Of a DNA stretch of 64,000 nt, positions 5,751-63,178 are shown in pieces. The position numbers were made by a program, and so were the translations under genes. The stretch is from Candidatus Eiseniibacteriota bacterium (GTDB taxonomy: Bacteria; Eisenbacteria; RBG-16-71-46; DASYSL01): contig JBOHUC010000024.1 in NCBI GenBank assembly GCA_050733935.1, positions 8,750-72,749 on the forward strand, read 5' to 3'. How positions within the stretch are numbered: the stretch's first letter is position 1; each line of letters starts with the position of its first letter. Below the pieces are notes generated by a model. It was given only the letters and a program-made list of their open reading frames with translations. It searched no databases and was not told where the DNA came from.

Positions 5751-8141
5751 TCAGGCCAGTCGGGCATCGCTCCCGGCGGCACGCCCGGTATCGATCCGCA
5801 CTTCCTTGAAGAGCGCATGATTCACGGCGCTGACCATGGGAGCTTCGAGAGGCCAGACAAGAGTGAGATTGGATCTGCGCGGGGCGTACGGCTCCCGATC
5901 CAGAACCGGATGCAGGTTCGGGTTCAGGCGCGCCGAGACCGGGGAGAGGTCCGCATTGACAGGCTGACGCAGGTACACGAGGGCCCGGTCCAGATCGCCG
6001 AGGCGGACACACGCCTCGGCGAGCAAGTAGCACGAGCCCGTGTTGAGACCCCGCGGGTCCTTCAGTTCCTCGACCAGCCTCCGAGCCTCGTCGTGACGAC
6101 CAGTACCCGCCGCGATGGCAGCACGGGACGCGTCCATCTCATGCCCATCCGCTCCATCCTTCAGAGCTTCCTCGAGCGTCTGCTCGGCGCGGGCATAGTC
6201 CCCTCGCAGGATGTGCGCCGCAATTCGAAGACCGTAGCTGCCGTTGATGTAAAACGTCGCATCCGTCATCTCTCGCAGGCGCCGGGCAGTGGCGATCGAC
6301 TCCTCGATCCTCTCCGTATCCAAAAGGAGAACCGAGAGCCAGGTTACCGCGAAGAGCTCCTGCGGATCGATTTCGAGCACACGGCGGATGAGACGTTCCG
6401 TTCCGGCCACGTCCGCGAGCGCATACTTGTTGACCGCCAGGTTCAACATGGCCGGCGTGAACCGTGGATTCACTTCGAGGGCACGCTCGAGCTCCATGCG
6501 TGACTCGGCAGCCTCACCGGATTGTCGCAATACGAGAGCGAGGGCCTTGTGGCCTTCCGCAAGACGCGGATCGATTGCAATGGCTCGCCGCGCCGCTTCG
6601 ATGCCTGACCGGCGGGCTTCAACCGGGTCGTCGGTCAACTGGAACTGAAGCATCTGTCCGTAGCAATCCGCGATCCCCGACCAGGCGAGTGCGTAGTTGG
6701 GATCGATCTCGGTGGCCTCGCGGAAGAACTCGAAGGCCTCGCGGATGCTCTTCTCCGAATACTGGCGATAGCGGTCCCGCCCTTTCAGGTAGAGATCGTA
6801 CGCGCGGACATCCTTTGGCCGCTCCTTGCCCAGGTTCTCGGATTCGCCGGGCCGCAGCGCGACGCGAAGCGCTTCGGCAATGGAGGACGCGATTTCTTCC
6901 TGAACCGCGAACACGTCCTCGAGAGTCCGGTCGTAGCGATCGGCCCAGAGATGGAATCCGTCTGCGGCATTGATGAGCTGTGCGGTGATCCGCACGCGAT
7001 CGCCGGCGCGCCGGACGCTGCCCTCGAGCACCGCCCGGACCCCGAGCTCAGTACCGACCTTCGCGATGTCGACGGCTTGCCCGCGATAGCGGGCAACGGC
7101 ATTCCGTGAGGCCACGCGCAGGCCCTTGATCTTCGAGAGATCGGTCAGAATGTCCTCGGTGATTCCCGAGCAGAAGTAATCGCTCTCCTTGTCGGCGGCC
7201 AGGTTCTCGAAATAGAGCACAGCGAGCGACGGAAGCTCCGCGGCTTTCGGGCCGATTCCGGACGCGGGTCCGCGTCCCGCCGAGGAGAGTTCGGCGGCGA
7301 TGGCCGAAAGCTCGCGGCGCAAATCGCCGATGTCGCGCGGCCGCTCCGTTGCATCCTTCGTGAGGCAACGTTCCATGAGCTCCCGAAGGCGGACCGGCAC
7401 GCCCGGCGGCAGCGCACTCCAGTCCGGCTCGCGCTCGAGGATTCCGGCAATCACGTCGGAGGAGGTTTCGCCGGCGAACGTCTGTTTGCCGCTCAGGCAT
7501 TCGAACAGCAGGCAGCCGAACGCCCACACGTCGGTGCGGCGATCCACGGGCTTCCCGCGCGCCTGCTCGGGGCTCATGTACGGTGCTGTGCCGAGAACGA
7601 CCCCGTGTTCGGTGATCGAGGGGGCCTGGGGCGTCACGGTGAGGTCGGAGGACGAGCCGGGCTCGGTTCCCTTCGCGAGCCCGAAGTCGAGCACCTTGAC
7701 GGCCCCGGACGGCGTGAGAATCACGTTCGCGGGCTTGAGGTCGCGATGGACGATCCCGCGTTCGTGCGCGGCATCGACGGCGGCCGCGATTTGACCGCCC
7801 AGGTCGAGCGTCTCGCGCACGCTGAGCGGGCCCCGGGCCAGGCGTGCGCTCAGCGTCTCGCCGTCGACGAACTCGAGAACGATGTACGGCGTGCCGTCGA
7901 CGTCCTCGAGCCCGTGGATCATGGCGATGTTCGGATGATTGAGCGCGGCCACGAGTTTCGCTTCGCGCTCGAATCGCGCGCGGCGCTCGGGGTCGCTCGT
8001 GAAGGCCTTCGGCAGGGACTTGATCGCGACCGTCCGCTCGAGGCGCGTGTCGCGCGCGCGGTAGACCTCGCCCATCCCACCTGCGCCAAGGGGCGCAAGG
8101 ATCTCGTACTGACCGAGGCGTGTGCCGGTCATCAGGGACAT
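5751..8141 (-). CDS. Serine/threonine protein kinase with a C-terminal TPR repeat region
   Basis: The N-terminal kinase domain shows GAGGMGEVY, AIK, HRDLKPANVIL, DFGLAK and SPEQ. It is followed by a central sensor-like module and C-terminal TPR repeats. Confidence 0.85.
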   Translation of the reverse strand: MSLMTGTRLGQYEILAPLGAGGMGEVYRARDTRLERTVAIKSLPKAFTSDPERRARFEREAKLVAALNHPNIAMIHGLEDVDGTPYIVLEFVDGETLSARLARGPLSVRETLDLGGQIAAAVDAAHERGIVHRDLKPANVILTPSGAVKVLDFGLAKGTEPGSSSDLTVTPQAPSITEHGVVLGTAPYMSPEQARGKPVDRRTDVWAFGCLLFECLSGKQTFAGETSSDVIAGILEREPDWSALPPGVPVRLRELMERCLTKDATERPRDIGDLRRELSAIAAELSSAGRGPASGIGPKAAELPSLAVLYFENLAADKESDYFCSGITEDILTDLSKIKGLRVASRNAVARYRGQAVDIAKVGTELGVRAVLEGSVRRAGDRVRITAQLINAADGFHLWADRYDRTLEDVFAVQEEIASSIAEALRVALRPGESENLGKERPKDVRAYDLYLKGRDRYRQYSEKSIREAFEFFREATEIDPNYALAWSGIADCYGQMLQFQLTDDPVEARRSGIEAARRAIAIDPRLAEGHKALALVLRQSGEAAESRMELERALEVNPRFTPAMLNLAVNKYALADVAGTERLIRRVLEIDPQELFAVTWLSVLLLDTERIEESIATARRLREMTDATFYINGSYGLRIAAHILRGDYARAEQTLEEALKDGADGHEMDASRAAIAAGTGRHDEARRLVEELKDPRGLNTGSCYLLAEACVRLGDLDRALVYLRQPVNADLSPVSARLNPNLHPVLDREPYAPRRSNLTLVWPLEAPMVSAVNHALFKEVRIDTGRAAGSDARLA

Positions 8142-34806: not shown

Positions 34807-36906
34807 ATGGTTCGCTCTTCCGACCCCGTCGCGTCCGAGCGCCCCTTGCGCAAGGGCGCGGACGGACGTCCCACACGCGAAGCGCTCGAGCGTCAGAATT
34901 TCGAGCTCACCGCACTGCTCGAGATCGCGCGCGGACTCTTGTCCGCCGGCGATCCCGGACAGGCCGTGGGCCAGTTCCTGCTCTCCTGCGTGGCGGGTGT
35001 AGGGGCCGCGAGCGCTGCGGGCCTCCGCTGGGAGGCCGACCGCGGCCGGCTCAGGCTGTGGCGGCACTACGGCTATCAGGAAGCGATCGTCACCGACATC
35101 CGTCCGGTGCTCGACCCCGAAGACCTCGTCTTTCTCGAAAGCGCGGAAGCCCGGAGCGGCGTGTCACTCAAGCCGTCGCCCGGAAGCGATCGCTGCCGCG
35201 ACTTCGTGCGCCGAAACGGCGACTGGCTCGCGCGTCTCGATGCGCAGGCAATTGTCCCGCTCGTCGGTCGCGGCGGCTTCTACGGACTTGCGGTCTGGGG
35301 ACCACGCCTTCTCGGCGAGGACTACGGCGACGACGAGCTCGATCTTCTCGCGACCGCCGCCCAGCTCTGCACGCAGGCGCTCGAGAACCTCCTCTATCAC
35401 TCGACGGGAGCCGCGTCCGGTGAGCAGCCGACGTTCGGTCCGGTCGAACCGACCGAAGCTCCGGGCGCGCTCGAGCCCGACGCGGGACCGTCCGCGCATC
35501 TCGGCAAACTTTCGCTCTCGGAGCTGCGCCGGCGATTTCCGATCACGCAGGAGATCGTGGGCGAGAGCCCGACGTTCGAGCGCTTCTTCCGCGAAGTCGC
35601 GATGGTCGCGCCCGCGCGCTGCCCCGTGCTCATCCTTGGCGAAACCGGAACGGGCAAGGAGCTCGCGGCCCGCGCGATCCATCACCTCTCACCGCGCGCC
35701 GAGCGGCCGTTCGAGGTGGTCGACTGCGGCTCGATCCCGCGCGAGCTGATCGAGAGCGAGCTCTTCGGGCACGTGCGCGGCGCCTTCACGGGCGCGACAC
35801 GCGATCGCCGCGGCGCGTTCGAGCTCGCGAACGGCGGAACGCTGTTCCTCGACGAGATCGGCGAGCTCCCGAACGGCGCACAGACGCGCCTCCTCCGGGT
35901 TCTCCAGGAAGGACGCTTCCGCCGCGTCGGCGACGAGCGCGCGATCCAGGTGGACGTGCGCGTGGTCGCCGCCACGAACCGCGACCTTCTGAGCGAGGTC
36001 AAGGCCGGCCGATTCCGCGAAGATCTCTACTATCGTCTCAACGTGTTCTGCATCCGTCTGCCGGCGCTGCGCGAGCGGCGCCAGGACATCCCGCTCCTCG
36101 TCTCCCACGTCCTGGACCGGCTCGCCGACGATCTCGGCGGCCCGCCGCCGCGGCTTCCGACCGCCGTGCTCCGCCGCCTCGAGGAGTACGCGTTCCCGGG
36201 CAACATTCGGGAGCTTCGAAACCTCCTCACCGCCCTCGTGCTGCGCACGCAGGGTCGTGTGCCGACGCTCGAGGATCTCGACAATCTCCTCGAGCATTCG
36301 GAGGCGGGGCTCCTCGGGAACGGGTTCGCATCCCAGGGCGCGGGCCGCGAGGCGCGGCCGGCGTCGGGGCCGGGCTCGCGCTATCCGGATGCGCCCGCTC
36401 CGGTCGGTGCCGGGACTCCCTATCGCGATCCGGACGATGACGACGGCCCGTCGCCCTCGCGACCGCTCAAGCGCGACGTCGAGACGACCGGCGCCTGGGT
36501 GCTCGACCAGCTCCGTCGTTGCGACTTCAACCTGAGCCAGGCCGAGAGAAGCCTCGCGCGCCTCCGCCGCTCACCGGCCGGGCGAGCTGCAGCCCCGGTC
36601 GCCGACCGCTCGAGCCTCACGTATTACTTCCAGGGCGAATGCTTCAAGGCTTTCGCGGCCGCCGGCTTCGACCTGAAGCGCGCGGCGCGCGCGATCGCCG
36701 TCCTCCCCGACCTCGAGGATCGCGCCCGCGCCCGCCTCGAGGGCTACCTCGAATTCGTGATCGAGATCACGAACGAAGCGAACGATGACAACGACGCGCG
36801 GGAACGCTGCCGCGCGCGCCTTCCCAAGCTCCCCGCCCCCTACCTGCCGCACCTCGATGCAGTCGTCGACGCCTGTCGACGCGGAGGCTGGTCCCTCGGC
36901 AAGTAA
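34807..36906 (+). CDS. Sigma-54-dependent transcriptional activator (GAF, AAA+, HTH) with an extra C-terminal domain
   Basis: GETGTGKE Walker A, GAFTGA motif (HVRGAFTGA), the arginine-finger region, and an HTH with an insertion. RBS GGAGGG lies 10 nt before the ATG at 34807. Confidence 0.85.
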
Positions 36907-36927
36907 CGGTCCCGCTCCCGCGGCCGC

Positions 36928-37194
36928 CTAAGGCTGGTTCATCGGCGGAGGGGGCGGCGGTGGCGGCGGAGCGTTCCCGTCATTGCATCCGCTGAGATCC
37001 TCGAGGAATTCGTCGATCATGATGTAGATGTACGGCGCCTTGTCGCGCAGGAACTTGAAGATCGCACCTCCAAGCCGCGCCCAGGGGTTGTGTGTCTCGA
37101 TCGAGCTGCCGGCCATTGCCGCGCGCGGGGATGCGGCGAGGCTTCCCGCGGTCACGAGGGCGACGAGAGTAAGAAGGCTCACGAGCTTTCGCAT
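36928..37194 (-). CDS. Small secreted protein A with a poly-proline tail (paralog family)
   Basis: Signal peptide MRKLVSLLTLVALVTAGSLAA, core ...NPWARLGGAIFKFL...IDEFLEDL, and a C-terminal PPPPPPPPP. Confidence 0.55.
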   Translation of the reverse strand: MRKLVSLLTLVALVTAGSLAASPRAAMAGSSIETHNPWARLGGAIFKFLRDKAPYIYIMIDEFLEDLSGCNDGNAPPPPPPPPPMNQP

Positions 37195-37511
37195 GTGCGT
37201 GTCTCCGAAGGGGACCGTGTCTCCGACGGGGAACGTGTCCTCGCGAGGGCGGTGATGCGCCGAAGCGAACGCGCCGTCGAGGAGTGACGGCGCGTCACGT
37301 CGGCGAACGGCTCCCGGGCGACCACACGACGGATCGCACCGGGAACCGCACTTCGAATCGCGCGAGCGGCCCATCGCACGATGCCGCGGCCCGGACCCGC
37401 TTCCGCGGGAGTCCACGCGGGCTCCGCAAAAGCGCTGAGCAAGGCGAGAACGCCGAGCACCGCGAGCCCGACCACGACGAGCGATCGACGGACGCACGAG
37501 AGGCGAATCAA
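37179..37511 (-). CDS. Putative small secreted protein D (paralog family, weakest member)
   Basis: TTG start overlapping the stop of B (TTGA). Strong signal peptide (IRLSCVRRSLVVVGLAVLGVLALLSAFA). The mature part is Arg-rich, so this may be a spurious frame. Confidence 0.3.
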   Translation of the reverse strand: MIRLSCVRRSLVVVGLAVLGVLALLSAFAEPAWTPAEAGPGRGIVRWAARAIRSAVPGAIRRVVAREPFADVTRRHSSTARSLRRITALARTRSPSETRSPSETRTCESS

Positions 37512-37774
37512 CCGCTCGAATCCGCCGGCGGCCAGGGTGGATCCCCGGGAACCCACTGATCGATCACGTCCTCGAGGAACTCGAGCACCCGCTTGAGGGC
37601 CCGCCGGATCAACTCGACCGGCACGCGCGGAAGATCCCATCCCTGGATCTCGAACGAGGGTGTCCGGTCCCCGTCGTCTACACCGGCGACCGAAATCGGT
37701 GGAGCCGGGAGCCCGAGCGCGATGGCCAGCACGAGTACGAGCGCGAGCTTCAGGGGGCTTCTCCGGGCGCTCAT
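37508..37774 (-). CDS. Small secreted protein B with a Pro-rich tail (paralog family)
   Basis: ATGA overlap with C. Signal peptide, then ...RVLEFLEDVIDQW, then PGDPPWPP. Confidence 0.5.
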   Translation of the reverse strand: MSARRSPLKLALVLVLAIALGLPAPPISVAGVDDGDRTPSFEIQGWDLPRVPVELIRRALKRVLEFLEDVIDQWVPGDPPWPPADSSG

Positions 37775-38130
37775 TCCTGCTCGGGAGCGTTGCAGGATCC
37801 AGAAGCTGGCGACCCGGGTGCAGGGTCGCCGTGACCGGGACTGCGCGCAGGTTCGATGGCCGGTCCGGCCGCGGGACCGACAGGAACCGGAGCGATCATC
37901 GGGGGTCGGGGCGGCGGATTGTGGCGCTTTGCGCTCTCCCAGTATCCGCGCACGAGCTCGCTGATGCCATCGAGGCCGTCGAACATGGCGCGCGTGAGCC
38001 AGAGGCCGATGCGCGCGGCATCGTACGGATTGGCGGTGAACGCCGGGAGCGGGACGATCGGATGTGCCGGCGCGGAGCGCGGCACGAGGACGAGTCCGAT
38101 CGAGAGAAGAACGAACGCGAGAGATCGCAT
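37771..38130 (-). CDS. Small secreted protein C with a Pro-rich tail (paralog family)
   Basis: Signal peptide MRSLAFVLLSIGLVLV, core ...NPYDAARIGLWL...ISELVRGYWE, then a NPPPRPP...Pro/Gly/Ala-rich tail. RBS GAGG precedes the ATG at 38130. Confidence 0.55.
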   Translation of the reverse strand: MRSLAFVLLSIGLVLVPRSAPAHPIVPLPAFTANPYDAARIGLWLTRAMFDGLDGISELVRGYWESAKRHNPPPRPPMIAPVPVGPAAGPAIEPARSPGHGDPAPGSPASGSCNAPEQE

Positions 38131-38204
38131 GCGACCTCACGGCGGGAGCGGGCCCGGGGGCTCCCTTGGATCGACTGCGCCGGGGCCGCGCGAATCACGC
38201 GGAA

Positions 38205-38221
38205 CGCAAGCCGGGTGCCAG
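38205..38221 (-). promoter_or_regulatory. Sigma-54 (-24/-12) promoter
   Basis: The minus strand reads CTGGCACC-CGGC-TTGCG, matching TGGCACG-N4-TTGC. It lies about 75 nt upstream of gene C with no intervening ORF. Confidence 0.6.
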
Positions 38222-38378
38222 AAGGCAGACAGGCTCGAGTCGGCCACGCCCTGGCAGCGACACGCTCGCGTCCAACGAGTTAGGGACGAATCGTCTTCTG
38301 CAGACGCCCGAGACGCGCCGCAACTTCGCCGAACGAGGGACGCACGGCGTCGAGCGCTCGACGAATCGGCGGGTTAGA

Positions 38379-39314
38379 TCAGAGGATTCGCTTCCCGAGG
38401 GCAGACAGAAGGAGCTCGACGGCCAGATTGGCCGTCTGGTTGTGCTCGTCGAGCACCGGATTCACTTCCATGAGATCGAAGGCCATGAGGCGGCTCGAAT
38501 CCGACACCATCTCCATCGCAAGATGGGCCTCGCGATACGTGATGCCGCCGGGCACGGTCGTCCCGGTGCCCGGAGCGAACGACGGATCGATGCAGTCCAT
38601 GTCGAACGAGACATGAAGTCCGCCCGTTCCGTTGAGCGCGATCGCGAGCGCCTCCTCCATCACGGCCCGCATGCCCCGTTCGTCGATCTGGCGCATCGTG
38701 AACACGTGCACGCCAACCTGCTCGATGTTGCGCTTTTCACCCAGGTCGATCGAACGCGGGCCCACGAGCACGGCATTCTTCGGATGCACCTTGGGCTTGA
38801 AGCCCGCGATCTCGGTCATGTCCCGGTCGCCGAGCCCGACGGCGATCGCGAGCGCCATGCCGTGGATGTTCCCCGACGGAGTCGTCTCCGGCGTGTTCAT
38901 GTCGCCGTGCGCGTCGAACCAGATGAGGCCCATCGTCTCGTCGCGCTTCCTGAGATACGCGCCCAGGCCCGACGTCGAGCCGATCGCAACCGAGTGATCC
39001 CCGCCCAGGACGACGGGCAGGCACCCGTCGTCGAGCGACTGCTCGACTGCGATCGAAAGCTCGCGGCAGGTCTCGAGGATCGGCGCCTTGTACTTGAGCT
39101 TCGAGTCCCCGTGCTCCTGCTGCTCAGGAAGCTTGACGCGCACGTCGCCGAAATCCTCGACCGTGTATCCGAGCGCGCGCAGCCGGCTCCCGAGCTCGGC
39201 CACCCGCAGGGCCGAAGGGCCCATGTCCACGCCCCGCCGTCCGGCGCCCAGATCCATCGGGGCGCCGACCAGGCGGATGCGCTTGCTCGCGAGCACGCTC
39301 GGTACCGTCGACAT
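38379..39314 (-). CDS. rocF: Arginase (ureohydrolase family)
   Basis: GGDHSVAIG, DAHGDMNTP, SFDMDCIDP and GGITYRE manganese-binding motifs. Confidence 0.82.
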   Translation of the reverse strand: MSTVPSVLASKRIRLVGAPMDLGAGRRGVDMGPSALRVAELGSRLRALGYTVEDFGDVRVKLPEQQEHGDSKLKYKAPILETCRELSIAVEQSLDDGCLPVVLGGDHSVAIGSTSGLGAYLRKRDETMGLIWFDAHGDMNTPETTPSGNIHGMALAIAVGLGDRDMTEIAGFKPKVHPKNAVLVGPRSIDLGEKRNIEQVGVHVFTMRQIDERGMRAVMEEALAIALNGTGGLHVSFDMDCIDPSFAPGTGTTVPGGITYREAHLAMEMVSDSSRLMAFDLMEVNPVLDEHNQTANLAVELLLSALGKRIL

Positions 39315-58938: not shown

Positions 58939-58966
58939 AGATTATCCGCAACAATTGTTGTGTCAA
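58939..58966 (-). promoter_or_regulatory. Sigma-70-like promoter (TTGACA-16/17 nt-TAATCT) with the 12-bp palindrome CAACAATTGTTG in the spacer
   Basis: The minus strand reads cTTGACAcaacaattgttgcggaTAATCT upstream of the OMP gene. Confidence 0.5.
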
Positions 58967-61863
58967 GAGCTTTGCGTGGCGACCCCCGGAGCTAAGTCGA
59001 GCACCCGCACCGCCTCTTCGAACCAACCGGGGGCCCCGGAGCGCAGGTTCTCGACCAGCGCGCGGTGGCAGGTGAGCACCAGAACCTGGTGCCCGGAGCG
59101 AGTCACCTCACCCAGGGCCTTCAGGAAATGGGCCGCCCGTTCGTCGTCGCTCGTGGCGAATGGATCGTCGAACAAGAGCGGCAGTCGTTCACGCCCGCGC
59201 GCGAGGTACTCGCAGATCGCAAGCCGAAGCGCGAGCTCGACCTGGTCCCGCGCGCCGGCCGAAAGTGCCGCGTCGAGTCGGGAACCGGAAAGCCGCTCGC
59301 CTCCCATCGAAAGGGAAACCTCGAGCTGATCCGAAATGCGGAAGCCTTGATGCGGAAGGCCGAAGCGCACGAGGAACGACTCCGCACGACCCGCGAGATG
59401 CTCCGACCAGCGCGCGTTCGTCTCGCGCGCGACGGTCTGGAACCGCTCGCGCGCCAGCTCGACGGCGTCCTTGAACTGGCGCGCGCGGACGAGCGCCGCC
59501 GAGAGTCGCGTCCGATCCGCGAGGAACCGCGCGAGCCGCTCCGCCGAGTCGCGATCCCGGCCGCCCACGCGCGCGTGAAGATCGATCTGCTCGCTACGCA
59601 CGACCGAGAGCTCGCGCTCGATCGACGCCGCGTCCCGGTCGCCTTCCGCGGGCACGGGCGCGGGCGCGGCTGCGCTCGAAGCGGACGCCGGATCCTCCGC
59701 TGCAGCGAGCTCCGCGCGCAGGCGCTCGAGCTCGGCCGTCTGCGCGCGCTGCGCCCCCTCCGAGAGCAGGCGCTCCTCGGCCCGCGGAATGAGCTCGCGT
59801 TCGAGCGTCTCGAGACGTGCATGCTCGCGGGCACGACGCTCGACGGCCTCGATGACTTCGGCCTCGTTCACTTCTGCGGACGCAAGCCCCAGGCGCTTTG
59901 CGATCGCGACGAGGTCGGCGCGCGCGTCGTCACGCCGCAGCCCGGCCACGCGCTCCTGATCGACGAGACGGGCCTCGACGGCTTCGAGCGACTTCGCGCG
60001 CGCCCGCGCATCGAGCACGGTGCCGATTCCGAGGCGAAGCTTCGCCAGCGCCTCGTGCGCGGGGATGCTCTCGGGAAGACCCGCGCGCCGGGCCAGCCGG
60101 ACGACGTGCTCGAGCGCTTCGGCCCGGCCCGAGCGCGCGCGCGTCGCATCCTCCTCGAGCCATCCGGCGCGCTGGTTCTCCGAGCTCACGCGCAGGAATT
60201 CGCCGTGCTCGCGCAGGAGCGCGGTCACGTCCGGAAATCCGAGGCGTCCCGAAAGGCCGGCCAGGAGATCCTCGCGCGCCTTCCGGCGATGCTGGAGCTC
60301 CCCGAGTCGCCGCTGCGCGTCGAGCACCTGCTTGAGCGCTTCGTTGCGCGCGTTGTTCCGGTGTACCGCGCTCCGGAACAGGAACACAGTGCCGAGGGAA
60401 AGCCCGAGAAGCGTCCCGCCGAGGCCGACGAAGCTCTGGATCACCTGCCCGTGAAGCGCAAACCAGACAGCCGCCGCGCAAGCGACGAGCCCGACCCCGA
60501 TGAACGTGATTCCCCAGCCCCTCTGGCGCCCGCGCTGGCGCGCGATCGCCTCGATCTGCCCCTGGCCCCCCGTGATCGCACGCTGCGCGTTCTCGGTCTC
60601 GACGACGATCGCCTGCGTCTGCGCCGGGTACTGCGTGAGGAGTGTCCGATCCTCGCCGGAGAGACCGCCGAAGCGCCCGGCCCGCTCCGCGAGATACGCG
60701 AGCGACAGGCCGCGCGCCACGAGCTCGCTCTCGAGCGCTCCGAGCTTGTCCGCCGATTCCCGCTCCTGACGGGTGACGCGCTCGAGGTCCTTCTCGAGCA
60801 TGTGGAGCTCTTCGATGTGGCCGGGCGCGGCCCACTCGAACGCGCCGTGCTTCGCCAGCAGAGTCTCGAGTTCGAGCCGGGGAGCAGCGAGATCGCGCTC
60901 GCGCTCCTTCGCAATCTGCTCGAGGGTCGAGAGCGCGGATTCATTCTCCGCTTTCGCGCGTGCAAGGCGGCTCGCCGCGTCCGCCGGGAAATCCCGCGAA
61001 CCCTCGAGACCCTTCACTTCCGTGCGATGGGATTCGAGCTCGCGCCGTTCCGCCGCATCGCGCTCGAGCACGGCCGCGAGATCGCCTATGCGCCGCCGCG
61101 TCTCCTCGCGCCGCACGCGGGTGAGCGCGGCCGTGAGGCGCGCCTCCCTGAGCCCGAGCTCGGTGAGACGCTCGAGCGCGTCCGCGAGCTCGCGCCGCTC
61201 GTTCTCCGCCGAAGCGAGATCCACCTTGTTGGTGGCGAGCGCAATCTCGAGCTTCTTGATCTCGTTCGTGACCAGGCCCGACTGCTGCATTCCGCGATAG
61301 GAACGGAGCGCGTTGTCGAGCACGCCGAACGCAGCCACGGCGGATGCGTCCCCGGTCACGCTCGAGGCCATGCTCTCGAGCATCGCGGTCAGGGAGCCGT
61401 CGGGCCTCACGTCCGCGCCGCCGAGCCGGCCGGGACCGGGCTGCATCCAGAGTGCGGTGCGCGCGAACTGGTCGATGTTCATCCCGAGCAGCTCTTCACC
61501 CAGCTTGTACTCGCCCGAGCCGTGACGGAACGAGTCCGTGACGTCACGACCGTCCTCGTGCACGTTGAGGCGGCCGTTTCCGAAGTGGCGGCTCACGATG
61601 TAGCGCCGGCCCTCGATCTCGAACTCGAGCTCGAGCGCGTACGTCCTCCCGCTCCACGGCCGGTGCTGATCGAGCGGTGTCTCGCGTTCCCGATACGCAC
61701 GGCGGTCGCTGTCGAGTCCGTAGAGGGCGGCCACGATCGCGGCCGCGAGCGTGGTCTTCCCGCGCTCGTTTCCGCCCACGATGAGATGGATGCGCTCGGG
61801 CTCGAACGTCCACGTCCCGGTCAGCGCGCCGAATCCCTCGATCTGAAGACGACGCAGGTTCAC
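58963..61863 (-). CDS. SbcC/Rad50-like AAA ATPase with a long coiled coil and an internal two-TM hairpin (YhaN-like)
   Basis: N-terminal Walker A (IVGGNERGKTT), a C-terminal signature/Walker B/D-loop region (...LPLLFDDPFATSDD...), and mid-protein TM helices (WGITFIGVGLVACAAAVWFAL, FVGLGGTLLGLSLGTVFLF). The GTG start overlaps the sbcD-like stop (GTGA). Confidence 0.8.
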   Translation of the reverse strand: MNLRRLQIEGFGALTGTWTFEPERIHLIVGGNERGKTTLAAAIVAALYGLDSDRRAYRERETPLDQHRPWSGRTYALELEFEIEGRRYIVSRHFGNGRLNVHEDGRDVTDSFRHGSGEYKLGEELLGMNIDQFARTALWMQPGPGRLGGADVRPDGSLTAMLESMASSVTGDASAVAAFGVLDNALRSYRGMQQSGLVTNEIKKLEIALATNKVDLASAENERRELADALERLTELGLREARLTAALTRVRREETRRRIGDLAAVLERDAAERRELESHRTEVKGLEGSRDFPADAASRLARAKAENESALSTLEQIAKERERDLAAPRLELETLLAKHGAFEWAAPGHIEELHMLEKDLERVTRQERESADKLGALESELVARGLSLAYLAERAGRFGGLSGEDRTLLTQYPAQTQAIVVETENAQRAITGGQGQIEAIARQRGRQRGWGITFIGVGLVACAAAVWFALHGQVIQSFVGLGGTLLGLSLGTVFLFRSAVHRNNARNEALKQVLDAQRRLGELQHRRKAREDLLAGLSGRLGFPDVTALLREHGEFLRVSSENQRAGWLEEDATRARSGRAEALEHVVRLARRAGLPESIPAHEALAKLRLGIGTVLDARARAKSLEAVEARLVDQERVAGLRRDDARADLVAIAKRLGLASAEVNEAEVIEAVERRAREHARLETLERELIPRAEERLLSEGAQRAQTAELERLRAELAAAEDPASASSAAAPAPVPAEGDRDAASIERELSVVRSEQIDLHARVGGRDRDSAERLARFLADRTRLSAALVRARQFKDAVELARERFQTVARETNARWSEHLAGRAESFLVRFGLPHQGFRISDQLEVSLSMGGERLSGSRLDAALSAGARDQVELALRLAICEYLARGRERLPLLFDDPFATSDDERAAHFLKALGEVTRSGHQVLVLTCHRALVENLRSGAPGWFEEAVRVLDLAPGVATQSS

Positions 61864-63083
61864 CGCGCGGCCTCTCCGATGTGCTCGTAGCGCGGCGCGA
61901 CGTCCCCGAGCCGAAGCGCATCGAGTCCGTAGTAGAGCGCCGCCTCGAGCAAGCGCCGACGCTCGGGATCGTTCTCCCGATCCATGTCCTCGAGCAACGA
62001 GCGCGCGAACCGCTCCTCGGTCGTGCGCGGCTCCGTGCGCCGGTAGACGTCGAGGTCGTAGTCGGGACGAAGCGCCGACGCATTGATCTCGAGGTGGAAG
62101 CAGCGGTTCGCGAACGCGTCCGCGCCCGGGAGGAGCTCCACGCCGGGCCGAACACGGCCCGTGAGCGTGACGAGCGCGATGTCGTCGGGATTGACGAATG
62201 CGAGATCGAGCTCCTCGGCGATCCGCTGGGTGAGCGCCTCCGGCGAGCCGACGGACTGGAGGCGCACTTCGATCCGGTGCAGGCGGCGCCGGTCGAGCTC
62301 GAGGACGTCCACATCCACGCGCCGGTGATGTCCATTGTGATCGACGGTGACGATCTGAACGTAGCGGCGATCCGTCTCGTCGACGCAGAGCGCGAGCGGC
62401 GAGCCGGAATAGCTTCCGCGAACGACTCCTTCCTCGTCCGTGATGCGGGCCGGGCGGTGGTAGTGACCGAGTGCGGCGTAATCGGCGCCCCACGCGATCA
62501 GCTCGTCGTCGGAGAACGGTGCCGTGAGCTTCTTCCCGAGCGGGAAGAACCCGTCGCGCGAGCCATGGAGCAGGAGCACGTGGAGCTTTCCGGGCGCGAG
62601 CGACGGCCGGTCGAGCGCGAGCACGCGCTCGCTCGAATCCACGTTCTCGTGCACGCATCGCCCCCACACGAAGACGTCGTCGCGGCCCGGGAGCGGCACG
62701 CCCGTGATCTGCGGCAGATCGAAGATGTGGACGTGCGCAGGCCAGGTCGCCTGACCCGCGGCTTCGAGCTTGCGGTTGTCGTAATAGAACGTGGCCCGGG
62801 AGAAGCAGTCGTGGTTGCCCGGAGCGATGAAGATGGGCGGGCATCCCGGTTGCGAGACGCACTCGATCGCGCGCGCCACGGTTTCACGATCCACGATCTC
62901 GCCGTCGAACAGGTCCCCGGGAATGAGGATTGCGTCGAGCTTGCGCTCGATGGCGACCTGCACGGCGCGGGCGAACAGCTCGCGCTGATCCTGGCGCCGC
63001 TTCTCCGCGACGGGGGCGGGGAGCCACGTGAACGGGCGCCCCAGATGGAGATCGGAGAGCTGGAGGAACGTGAAGGAAGGCAT
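61860..63083 (-). CDS. SbcD/Mre11-like metallophosphoesterase (YhaO-like)
   Basis: Calcineurin-like motifs (LQLSDLHLG, IPGDLFD, GNHD, LLHG, GHYH). The internal ATG at 63083 is preferred. Confidence 0.8.
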   Translation of the reverse strand: MPSFTFLQLSDLHLGRPFTWLPAPVAEKRRQDQRELFARAVQVAIERKLDAILIPGDLFDGEIVDRETVARAIECVSQPGCPPIFIAPGNHDCFSRATFYYDNRKLEAAGQATWPAHVHIFDLPQITGVPLPGRDDVFVWGRCVHENVDSSERVLALDRPSLAPGKLHVLLLHGSRDGFFPLGKKLTAPFSDDELIAWGADYAALGHYHRPARITDEEGVVRGSYSGSPLALCVDETDRRYVQIVTVDHNGHHRRVDVDVLELDRRRLHRIEVRLQSVGSPEALTQRIAEELDLAFVNPDDIALVTLTGRVRPGVELLPGADAFANRCFHLEINASALRPDYDLDVYRRTEPRTTEERFARSLLEDMDRENDPERRRLLEAALYYGLDALRLGDVAPRYEHIGEAAR

Positions 63084-63178
63084 CGGGTTGCACCCTACAC
63101 GCCGAGGAGGACAGGAACAAGCCTTGGCCGCTCCGCGGCTGGTCCGCACCGCGCGCGGCATGGTACCGTGAGCGTGTC

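Follow-up and report, generated by a model that had tools for sequence, protein, structure and literature searches.

The DNA stretch analysed here, referred to as the window, comprises 64 kilobases (kb) of a contig from a metagenome-assembled genome (MAG) of Candidatus Eisenbacteria (Eiseniibacteriota), uncultured bacteria of soil and sediment, and has a GC content of 68%. Its subject of interest is an array of four small genes, termed C, B, D and A, which is preceded by a sigma-54-type promoter motif and faces the convergent gene of a sigma-54 activator, or bacterial enhancer-binding protein (bEBP). Along the locus, an arginase gene is followed by a 250-nucleotide (nt) intergenic region and by C, B, D and A, all on the minus strand, and finally by the activator gene on the plus strand. 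Comparison with related loci indicates that this is a well-supported, conserved and lineage-specific operon. The features are as follows:

38379..39314, minus strand: arginase gene (Pfam Arginase, E = 6e-79)
38348..38363, no strand: 16-nt palindrome CGTCGAGCGCTCGACG, perfect in sequence, some 130 nt ahead of the -24 element
38206..38220, minus strand: predicted sigma-54 -24/-12 element TGGCACCCGGCTTGC, the sole exact match in the window
37771..38130, minus strand: gene C, 119 amino acids (aa), called by NCBI
37508..37774, minus strand: gene B, 88 aa, called by NCBI
37179..37511, minus strand: probable gene D, 110 aa, TTG start, uncalled in this genome
36928..37194, minus strand: gene A, 88 aa, called by NCBI
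34807..36906, plus strand: sigma-54 activator (bEBP), 699 aa (Pfam Sigma54_activat, E = 2e-69)

The small genes are tiled end to end. The B ATG at 37774 lies inside an ATGA overlap with the C stop, the D TTG at 37511 lies inside a TTGA overlap with the B stop, and D overlaps A, whose start is the ATG at 37194, by 16 nt; 21 nt separate the A stop codon from the end of the activator gene. The coupled array proposed in the initial annotation, which had been made from the sequence of this stretch alone, is recovered in the ATGA and TTGA overlaps at the C/B and B/D junctions, but the gap that it placed before A does not exist, because D occupies the interval between B and A. Nor does this interval correspond to a known RNA, given that an Rfam scan of 36500-38800 returned sub-threshold noise only. 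The gene callers applied to this genome (NCBI, Logan) report C, B and A, and omit D.

Scans of genome and metagenome contigs for related loci, seeded with the A alignment, found nothing, and the C-terminal domain of the activator was therefore used as the probe. This recovered 6 loci from GTDB species genomes, all of them Candidatus Eisenbacteria, together with 22 metagenome contigs. A profile of A run against 1.84 billion representative proteins gave 5 matches, all of 87-90 aa and all with the A motif and a proline tail, and the contigs of these matches place A convergent to the same activator. Wherever the sequence suffices, the loci share one plan, namely an arginase gene, one sigma-54-type motif, 2-4 tiled open reading frames (ORFs) with signal peptides and a convergent activator gene, and stop/start overlaps of the ATGA, TTGA and GTGA kinds recur in the window, L005, L007, L008 and L013. 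Several types of small gene, each with orthologues, can be recognized across the loci (C/C'/C'', B/B', E, A/A' and D), and they are arranged in the following layouts:

C-B-D-A: the window and L004
C''-D-E-A: L008, L009, L013, L033 and L036
C'-A'-B', the commonest layout: L006, L007 and most metagenome loci (e.g. L016-L031)
D-A alone: L032

At the boundary with the activator, a Laminin_G_3/FlgD_ig gene lies between A and the activator gene in L004 (11315-12385) and L003 (525-1061), where the window has the 21 nt only. In L005 3-818 (ENA contig BAND20-1 scaffold_50694), an alpha/beta-hydrolase-like N-terminus of about 200 aa is joined to a C core and tail, upstream of a B homologue, the join falling exactly at DAARIG(I/L)W with about 20 nt common with C. 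This ORF, on a contig of 1.1 kb, is more likely to be chimeric through assembly than a true fusion, and the notion that C is the remnant of an alpha/beta hydrolase was rejected, as only the approximately 20 nt around DAARIG are common to the two and L005 is most simply chimeric.

The sigma-54-type promoter motif

The minus strand at 38221-38205 reads C-TGGCAC-CCGGC-TTGC-G, with the GG and GC doublets exactly 10 nt apart, and the element (TGGCACCCGGCTTGC) is located 75 nt upstream of the small-gene array. The exact pattern TGGCAC-N5-TTGC occurs once in the 64 kb when both strands are counted, against an expectation of 0.08 from dinucleotide shuffles, with at least one chance match in 8 of 100 such shuffles. 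In the comparison of 21 independent loci, i.e. the window and 20 related loci, GGCA[CT]-N5-TTGC precedes the first small gene throughout (21/21), at a distance of roughly 45-75 nt from its start codon, and NGGCA[CT]-N5-TTGC is found exactly once in each of the 20 related loci. The intergenic DNA around the motif is unalignable between clades. The retention of the motif at the same position while its flanks diverge clearly constitutes the phylogenetic footprint of a -24/-12 promoter. The promoter call of the initial annotation is thus supported, since the GG/GC core and the TTGC are kept in all 21 loci on diverged flanks. These comparisons suggest that the array is transcribed from a sigma-54 promoter, for which textbook sigma-54 geometry predicts a transcription start near 38195 and a 5' untranslated region of about 65 nt.

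The surroundings of the motif offer few other signals. Within 36700-38500 neither a sigma-70-like promoter nor a credible terminator was found; the single terminator-like match in this interval, at the C start codon, is within chance expectation. No -24/-12 motif was found before the arginase gene, which, lying upstream of the sigma-54 promoter, is not driven by it, and the rpoN gene is not in the 64-kb window. A second, relaxed match to the motif (GGGCATCCCGGTTGC, 62839-62853, plus strand) lies within the minus-strand ORFs 61860-63161 and 58963-62862; being inside coding sequence with no gene downstream, it was dismissed as a promoter and most likely arose by chance.

Every locus carries inverted repeats 100-190 nt ahead of the motif, and in L006-L009 repeats of the CGTCG...CGACG type lie between the arginase stop and the motif (L007 7763-7808; L008 7758-7801). 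The palindrome at 38348-38363 of the window may be a binding site of the activator or mark the end of the arginase transcript. A candidate binding site for the activator, the shared 9-mer GATYCGTCG, was discarded, its frequency across the whole window being that of chance. No upstream motif shared across the loci above chance was found, so that no activator site is defined.

The small genes and their products

A first alternative is that the array is an artefact, made up of spurious ORFs of a 68% GC genome beside a chance sigma-54 match. The region does contain many long spurious ORFs, the motif arises by chance in some shuffles, as given above, the tail of C has an atypically low GC content at third codon positions (GC3), and D, uncalled in this genome, is Arg-rich in the manner of out-of-frame translations. 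The comparative data largely refute this explanation, which we regard as very improbable: the motif is present in all 21 loci; the orthologues keep length, signal peptide and core motifs, in answer to the worry of the initial annotation that these peptides might lack conservation in related genomes; the ratio of nonsynonymous to synonymous substitution rates (dN/dS) is below 1; and D combines a synonymous bias with an ATG start in L005 and a gene call in L013.

Word-indexed homology searches returned only 1-2 matches each for A, B and C, one of which led to L004, a locus in a second MAG. Against L004, the window proteins show aa identities of 56% for C (dN/dS 0.29), 41% for B (dN/dS 0.59) and 53% for A (dN/dS 0.36). 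An orthologue of C, P0005, from this syntenic locus is recorded as 60% identical, and B has a further orthologue, P0003, at 67% identity besides the L004 copy. The conserved part of A, B and C is their helical core. In A this is the 20-aa stretch KFLRDKAPYIYI[ML]IDEF[LM]EDL, which is the same in L004 save for two conservative changes (M/L, L/M). A GAGG sequence stands 5 nt ahead of the C ATG.

Gene D, which the initial annotation had listed as possible, is probably real. This assessment is based on its start within the overlap with B, the equivalent of which in L005 is an ATG within an ATGA overlap, on the synonymous bias of its substitutions, and on its recurrence in other loci. Relative to the near-identical contig L003 there are 13 substitutions, 7 of them at third codon positions and all 7 of these synonymous, and within the conserved block AEAGPxRxIVRW the window differs from L004 by 5 synonymous changes at third positions, in an alignment read by eye. 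A D-type gene is called in L013, and D-type ORFs are found in L008, L009, L032, L033 and L036. In L008 the D-type ORF (6813-7271) runs 224 nt into the E-type gene (6755-7036) in another frame, and L009 is similar; this is either a genuine long overlap or the result of a late stop in high-GC sequence. Just ahead of the A start lie about 2.3 tandem copies of the 18-nt unit ACACGNTCCCCNTCGGAG (37238-37195, minus strand), encoding SPSETR-SPSETR in the D frame and offering two GGAG(A) Shine-Dalgarno-like sites. Towards the other end of A, positions 36943-36969 hold nine consecutive proline codons (A codons 76-84). Translation of a run of nine prolines is expected to need elongation factor P, so that this run might serve as a control point in its own right.

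A predicted signal peptide stands at the N-terminus of all four products. By a heuristic assessment, each has a positive N-terminus, a hydrophobic stretch with a Kyte-Doolittle value of 2.8-3.4 over 10 aa and an AxA-type cleavage motif (APA/H, VAG/V, AFA/E and AMA/G), giving signal peptides of 22-31 aa and mature proteins of about 57-97 aa, so that the signal peptides supposed in the initial annotation show n-, h- and c-regions in 4/4 products and Sec-type export of all four is predicted. The same heuristic is passed by the 4 window ORFs and by 76 unique ORFs of the related loci. Downstream of the signal peptide the four proteins differ in architecture. C has an amphipathic helical core (DAARIGLWLTRAMFDGLDGISELVRGYWES) and a long Pro/Gly/Ala tail. 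B has one amphipathic helix (VELIRRALKRVLEFLEDVIDQW), a PGDPPWPP tail and a mature isoelectric point (pI) of 4.2. D follows its signal-peptide-like N-terminus with a strongly basic, Arg-rich segment (GIVRWAARAIRSAV...) and has a mature pI of 11.9. A has two short helices (PWARLGGAIFKFLRD and YIYIMIDEFLEDLS), a conserved Gly-Cys and the nine-proline run, with a mature pI of 4.6. The proline-rich tail that the initial annotation ascribed to all the products accordingly holds for C, B and A, but not for D, the tail of which is Arg/Ser/Thr-rich and basic.

Amphipathic character is pronounced in the helices, the hydrophobic moments of which (0.53-0.74) are higher than those of nearly all shuffles; the value for the B helix, 0.74, is reached by approximately 0.1% of 2000 shuffles. 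In the AlphaFold2 (AF2) model of B, helices span residues 7-19 (the signal peptide) and 53-74, the rest being coil, with a mean predicted local distance difference test score (pLDDT) of 59.5, rising to 72-79 in the helix. The model of A contains helices at 2-20 (the signal peptide), 37-51 and 53-68, the latter two split at a proline, followed by a coil tail (mean pLDDT 65.6). The charge pattern is kept in three divergent loci, with A and B/E types at pI 4.1-4.6, the D type at 11-12, and C variable. Certain tails carry motifs of their own: E-type tails end in DPDFxP (L008, L010, L012 and L036), most C'-type tails end in DSLPxRSIS (L006, L007 and L019-L029), and B'-type tails contain GTGHPGPLPGPLP, of the pattern GTGHPGP(L/G)PGPLP (L016-L035). 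The conservation of tail motifs in some types suggests that the tails are more than low-complexity filler.

The A-type proteins share the motif LYIxxDExxDDxxGC(x)C followed by the proline run, and their Gly-Cys or C-x-C clusters take forms such as GCGCG, GCDC and GGCCGGCC, window A having a single Cys. The L-[STG]-G-C at A residues 67-70 was rejected as a lipobox, since it lies about 40 residues past the signal peptide with no hydrophobic segment before it. The cysteine clusters could bind metal or form disulfides, and they bear on a second alternative, in which the small proteins act independently of one another in inducible periplasmic stress responses or metal buffering, as do ZraP (under ZraSR and sigma-54) or Spy/CpxP. 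Small exported helical proteins with a sigma-54 promoter and a neighbouring activator would fit such a role. We nonetheless consider it unlikely, because no Pfam or NCBIfam match to LTXXQ/CpxP/Spy/ZraP and no relative among PDB sequences was found, window A has only one Cys, one or two short helices are too small to form the helical cradle of these chaperones, and the conserved coupling of distinct types favours joint action.

Beyond these particular families, scans of all the small proteins against Pfam and NCBIfam gave nothing above noise, and the A and B profiles, run against PDB sequences, gave no relatives, in agreement with the initial annotation, which recognised no family. Its description of the array as paralogous fares less well. 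BLASTP comparisons between window A, B and C give E > 20 (E = 24 for A-B and E = 38 for A-C), and hhalign of the cores alone (A-B, A-C and B-C), with alignments built from 76 unique sequences, gives at most 1% probability. The links that do exist are indirect and run through the types of other loci. By hhalign, A and A' are related at 96% probability (E = 1e-9), C and C' at 72%, A' and B' at 58%, B and C' at 38%, and B-E and A'-E at about 25% each, while BLASTP gives 3e-5 for A-E within the 76-sequence set. As judged from these profiles, the acidic types could therefore go back to one ancient family. D is, by every test run, unrelated to the other types (below 1% by hhalign against each of them).

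On the whole, the small proteins are seen to be under purifying selection, yet to evolve much faster than their neighbours, as their dN/dS values of 0.29-0.59 are combined with identities of 41-56% against 91% for the neighbouring proteins, the arginase among these having a dN/dS of 0.07 relative to its L004 orthologue. Rapid change of this kind could have arisen from antagonism or recognition if the products were secreted competition or signalling peptides, of a bacteriocin-like or pheromone-like nature. Together with the contrast between 41-56% identity and the 91% of arginase and activator, the differences in gene content and order between clades, the small size and cysteines of the products and the TldD/PmbA peptidase genes nearby would be in keeping with this. 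Yet the neighbouring genes include none for modification, dedicated export or immunity, as a RiPP or bacteriocin precursor cluster would have, the N-termini have the form of normal Sec signals and not of leader peptides, mature A and B, being acidic and not cationic amphiphiles, do not resemble typical membrane-active peptides, and the TldD/PmbA genes, which are divergent from arginase, are common housekeeping genes. We hence judge a competition or signalling role to be quite unlikely.

The convergent activator

The activator consists of a GAF-like N-terminal region, an AAA+ domain with the GAFTGA motif, a variable linker and a conserved 147-aa C-terminal domain. Its AAA+ core is recognised by Pfam as Sigma54_activat (PF00158; E = 2.3e-69 over the full-length domain) and AAA_lid_14 (E = 1e-18); in NCBIfam this core alone matches known equivalogs, none of them reaching the cut-off. 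The GAFTGA begins at window position 35779 and is the only one in the window, in which this is also the sole sigma-54 activator gene. The protein is 91% identical to its L004 orthologue, the linker being the variable part. A convergent sigma-54 activator with AAA+ and GAFTGA, as originally described for this stretch, is hereby confirmed, and its linkage to the array proves to be conserved across loci. Two of the labels then given to its flanking regions do not hold up equally well. The designation GAF-type corresponds to a sub-threshold GAF_2 match (E = 0.11 for the full protein and 0.014 for the N-terminal part; 13-16 bits against a Pfam cut-off of 28.6 bits). The helix-turn-helix (HTH) assigned to its other end has no counterpart in the 147-168 aa C-terminal region, for which no Pfam match, HTH_8 included, was found even at E <= 10 with the C-terminal 168 aa, and no relative among PDB sequences.

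This C-terminal domain (residues 553-699; window 36463-36903) is 85-93% conserved across about 28 loci, and it is approximately 100 aa longer than the usual Fis-type DNA-binding tail. Two 12-residue segments in it resemble, by eye only, degenerate recognition helices of the Fis type.

In every locus with enough sequence, across three gene layouts, the same activator is convergent to the array. The other neighbours are TldD/PmbA, NfeD, Band_7, DUF1684, DUF6265 and DinB; on the P0009 contig NfeD and Band_7 are not called beside the activator, yet the activator still adjoins A. This conserved linkage suggests that the adjacent activator controls the promoter. It has to be set against the alternative that the promoter is real and served by another activator, for example as part of a nitrogen or arginine regulon tied to the arginase, the neighbouring activator controlling something else. 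Arginase is indeed the invariant upstream neighbour of the array wherever a locus extends that far, and sigma-54 often governs nitrogen and arginine catabolism, as in the case of RocR and sigma-L with rocF in Bacillus. Furthermore, no binding site is definable for the adjacent activator, and a gene is inserted between it and A in L003 and L004. On the other side, the activator stays beside the array in all loci and three layouts, P0009 included, no other sigma-54 motif was found near the activator gene, the front of the divergent NfeD operon included, and arginase lies upstream of the promoter, not downstream. Control by a different activator thus appears improbable.

A proposed envelope operon and its relation to known systems

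Taken together, the above observations lead us to favour, with a probability of roughly 0.55, a dedicated operon controlled by sigma-54 and the adjacent activator, the products of which would be Sec-exported helical mini-proteins acting together in the cell envelope. Under this proposal, sigma-54 RNA polymerase would bind the -24/-12 element at 38220-38206, and the activator, answering a cytoplasmic signal via its GAF-like sensor and using its atypical C-terminal region as the putative DNA-binding part, would remodel the polymerase to an open complex. One transcript from near 38195 would carry the translationally coupled C-B-D-A, and each product would be exported by a cleavable Sec-type signal peptide to yield a protein of one or two amphipathic helices and an extended tail, proline-rich in C, B and A and Arg-rich in D. 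The four proteins might then form a stoichiometric hetero-oligomer in the envelope, in which D would contribute a basic helix (pI about 12) to pair with those of A and B, which are acidic (pI 4-5), and the proline tails would project outward, the purpose being an inducible adaptation of the envelope or surface. Joint action is favoured because distinct types are kept together, are translationally coupled and are complementary in charge; L032, which keeps only D and A, is counted towards the charge pairing.

Several points weigh against this proposal. The acidic/basic pairing is not universal, given that the commonest layout, C'-A'-B', is without a D type, and strict adjacency of A and the activator is not required, in view of the FlgD_ig gene that intervenes in L003 and L004. 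Read-through from arginase is possible, and the upstream palindromes may merely end the arginase transcript. The AF2 models, with mean pLDDT of 59.5 and 65.6, are of low confidence. As the ORFs of the related loci were picked with the same signal-peptide heuristic, the evidence for export is partly circular there, and the strongly Arg-rich D may be poorly exported. Complex formation and the envelope role are steps that we infer.

A more specific form of the proposal envisages an undescribed, lineage-restricted envelope assembly of four helix-plus-tail types (acidic A and B/E, basic D and long-tailed C), switched on as a unit by an orphan activator with a new DNA-binding C-terminal domain; we offer it as a tentative and rather doubtful possibility. 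If an inducible envelope structure of this kind were to exist, it would represent a new small-protein module in an uncultured phylum without experimental genetics. Such a system would also be easy to reconstitute, as it comprises one promoter, one activator and four tiny genes. A literature search on sigma-54 in Eisenbacteria, or in connection with small secreted proline-rich proteins, found nothing relevant.

Among known systems, zraP/zraSR of Escherichia coli is alike in having a sigma-54 promoter beside the activator gene and a small helical periplasmic protein with a signal peptide. That system pairs a phospho-accepting response regulator, ZraR, with the kinase ZraS; its genes are arranged divergently, and ZraP is a member of the LTXXQ/CpxP family. 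In contrast, the activator described here is GAF-like at its N-terminus and lacks a receiver domain, the gene arrangement is convergent, and the four products are tailed and fall in no Pfam or NCBIfam family. The pspF/pspABCDE system is likewise a sigma-54 operon of several small envelope-related proteins beside a dedicated activator. PspF is without a sensor domain and is held by PspA, which is cytoplasmic, and PspB, PspC and PspD are membrane proteins without cleavable signal peptides; scans of the locus proteins with Pfam and NCBIfam gave no matches to the PspA, PspB or PspC families. Type IV pilins dependent on sigma-54 and PilR share with the present products the combination of a small exported structural subunit, a -24/-12 promoter and an activator; they are set apart by the AxA-type signal peptides seen here in place of a G/FTLIE class III leader, and by the lack of assembly genes nearby. 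Finally, the RocR/sigma-L arginase system of Bacillus subtilis (rocDEF) also unites a sigma-54 activator and arginase genes in one neighbourhood, whereas in the present locus arginase is upstream of the sigma-54 promoter, and the promoter precedes the genes of small exported proteins.

On the whole, the regulatory logic of the locus, a sigma-54 promoter with an adjacent activator, is that of the textbook, and it is the cargo and the C-terminal domain of the activator that depart from it. The former is a conserved, co-translated set of predicted exported helix-plus-tail proteins with no Pfam, NCBIfam or PDB-sequence match, and the latter is a highly conserved 147-aa domain that nevertheless matches no known DNA-binding family.

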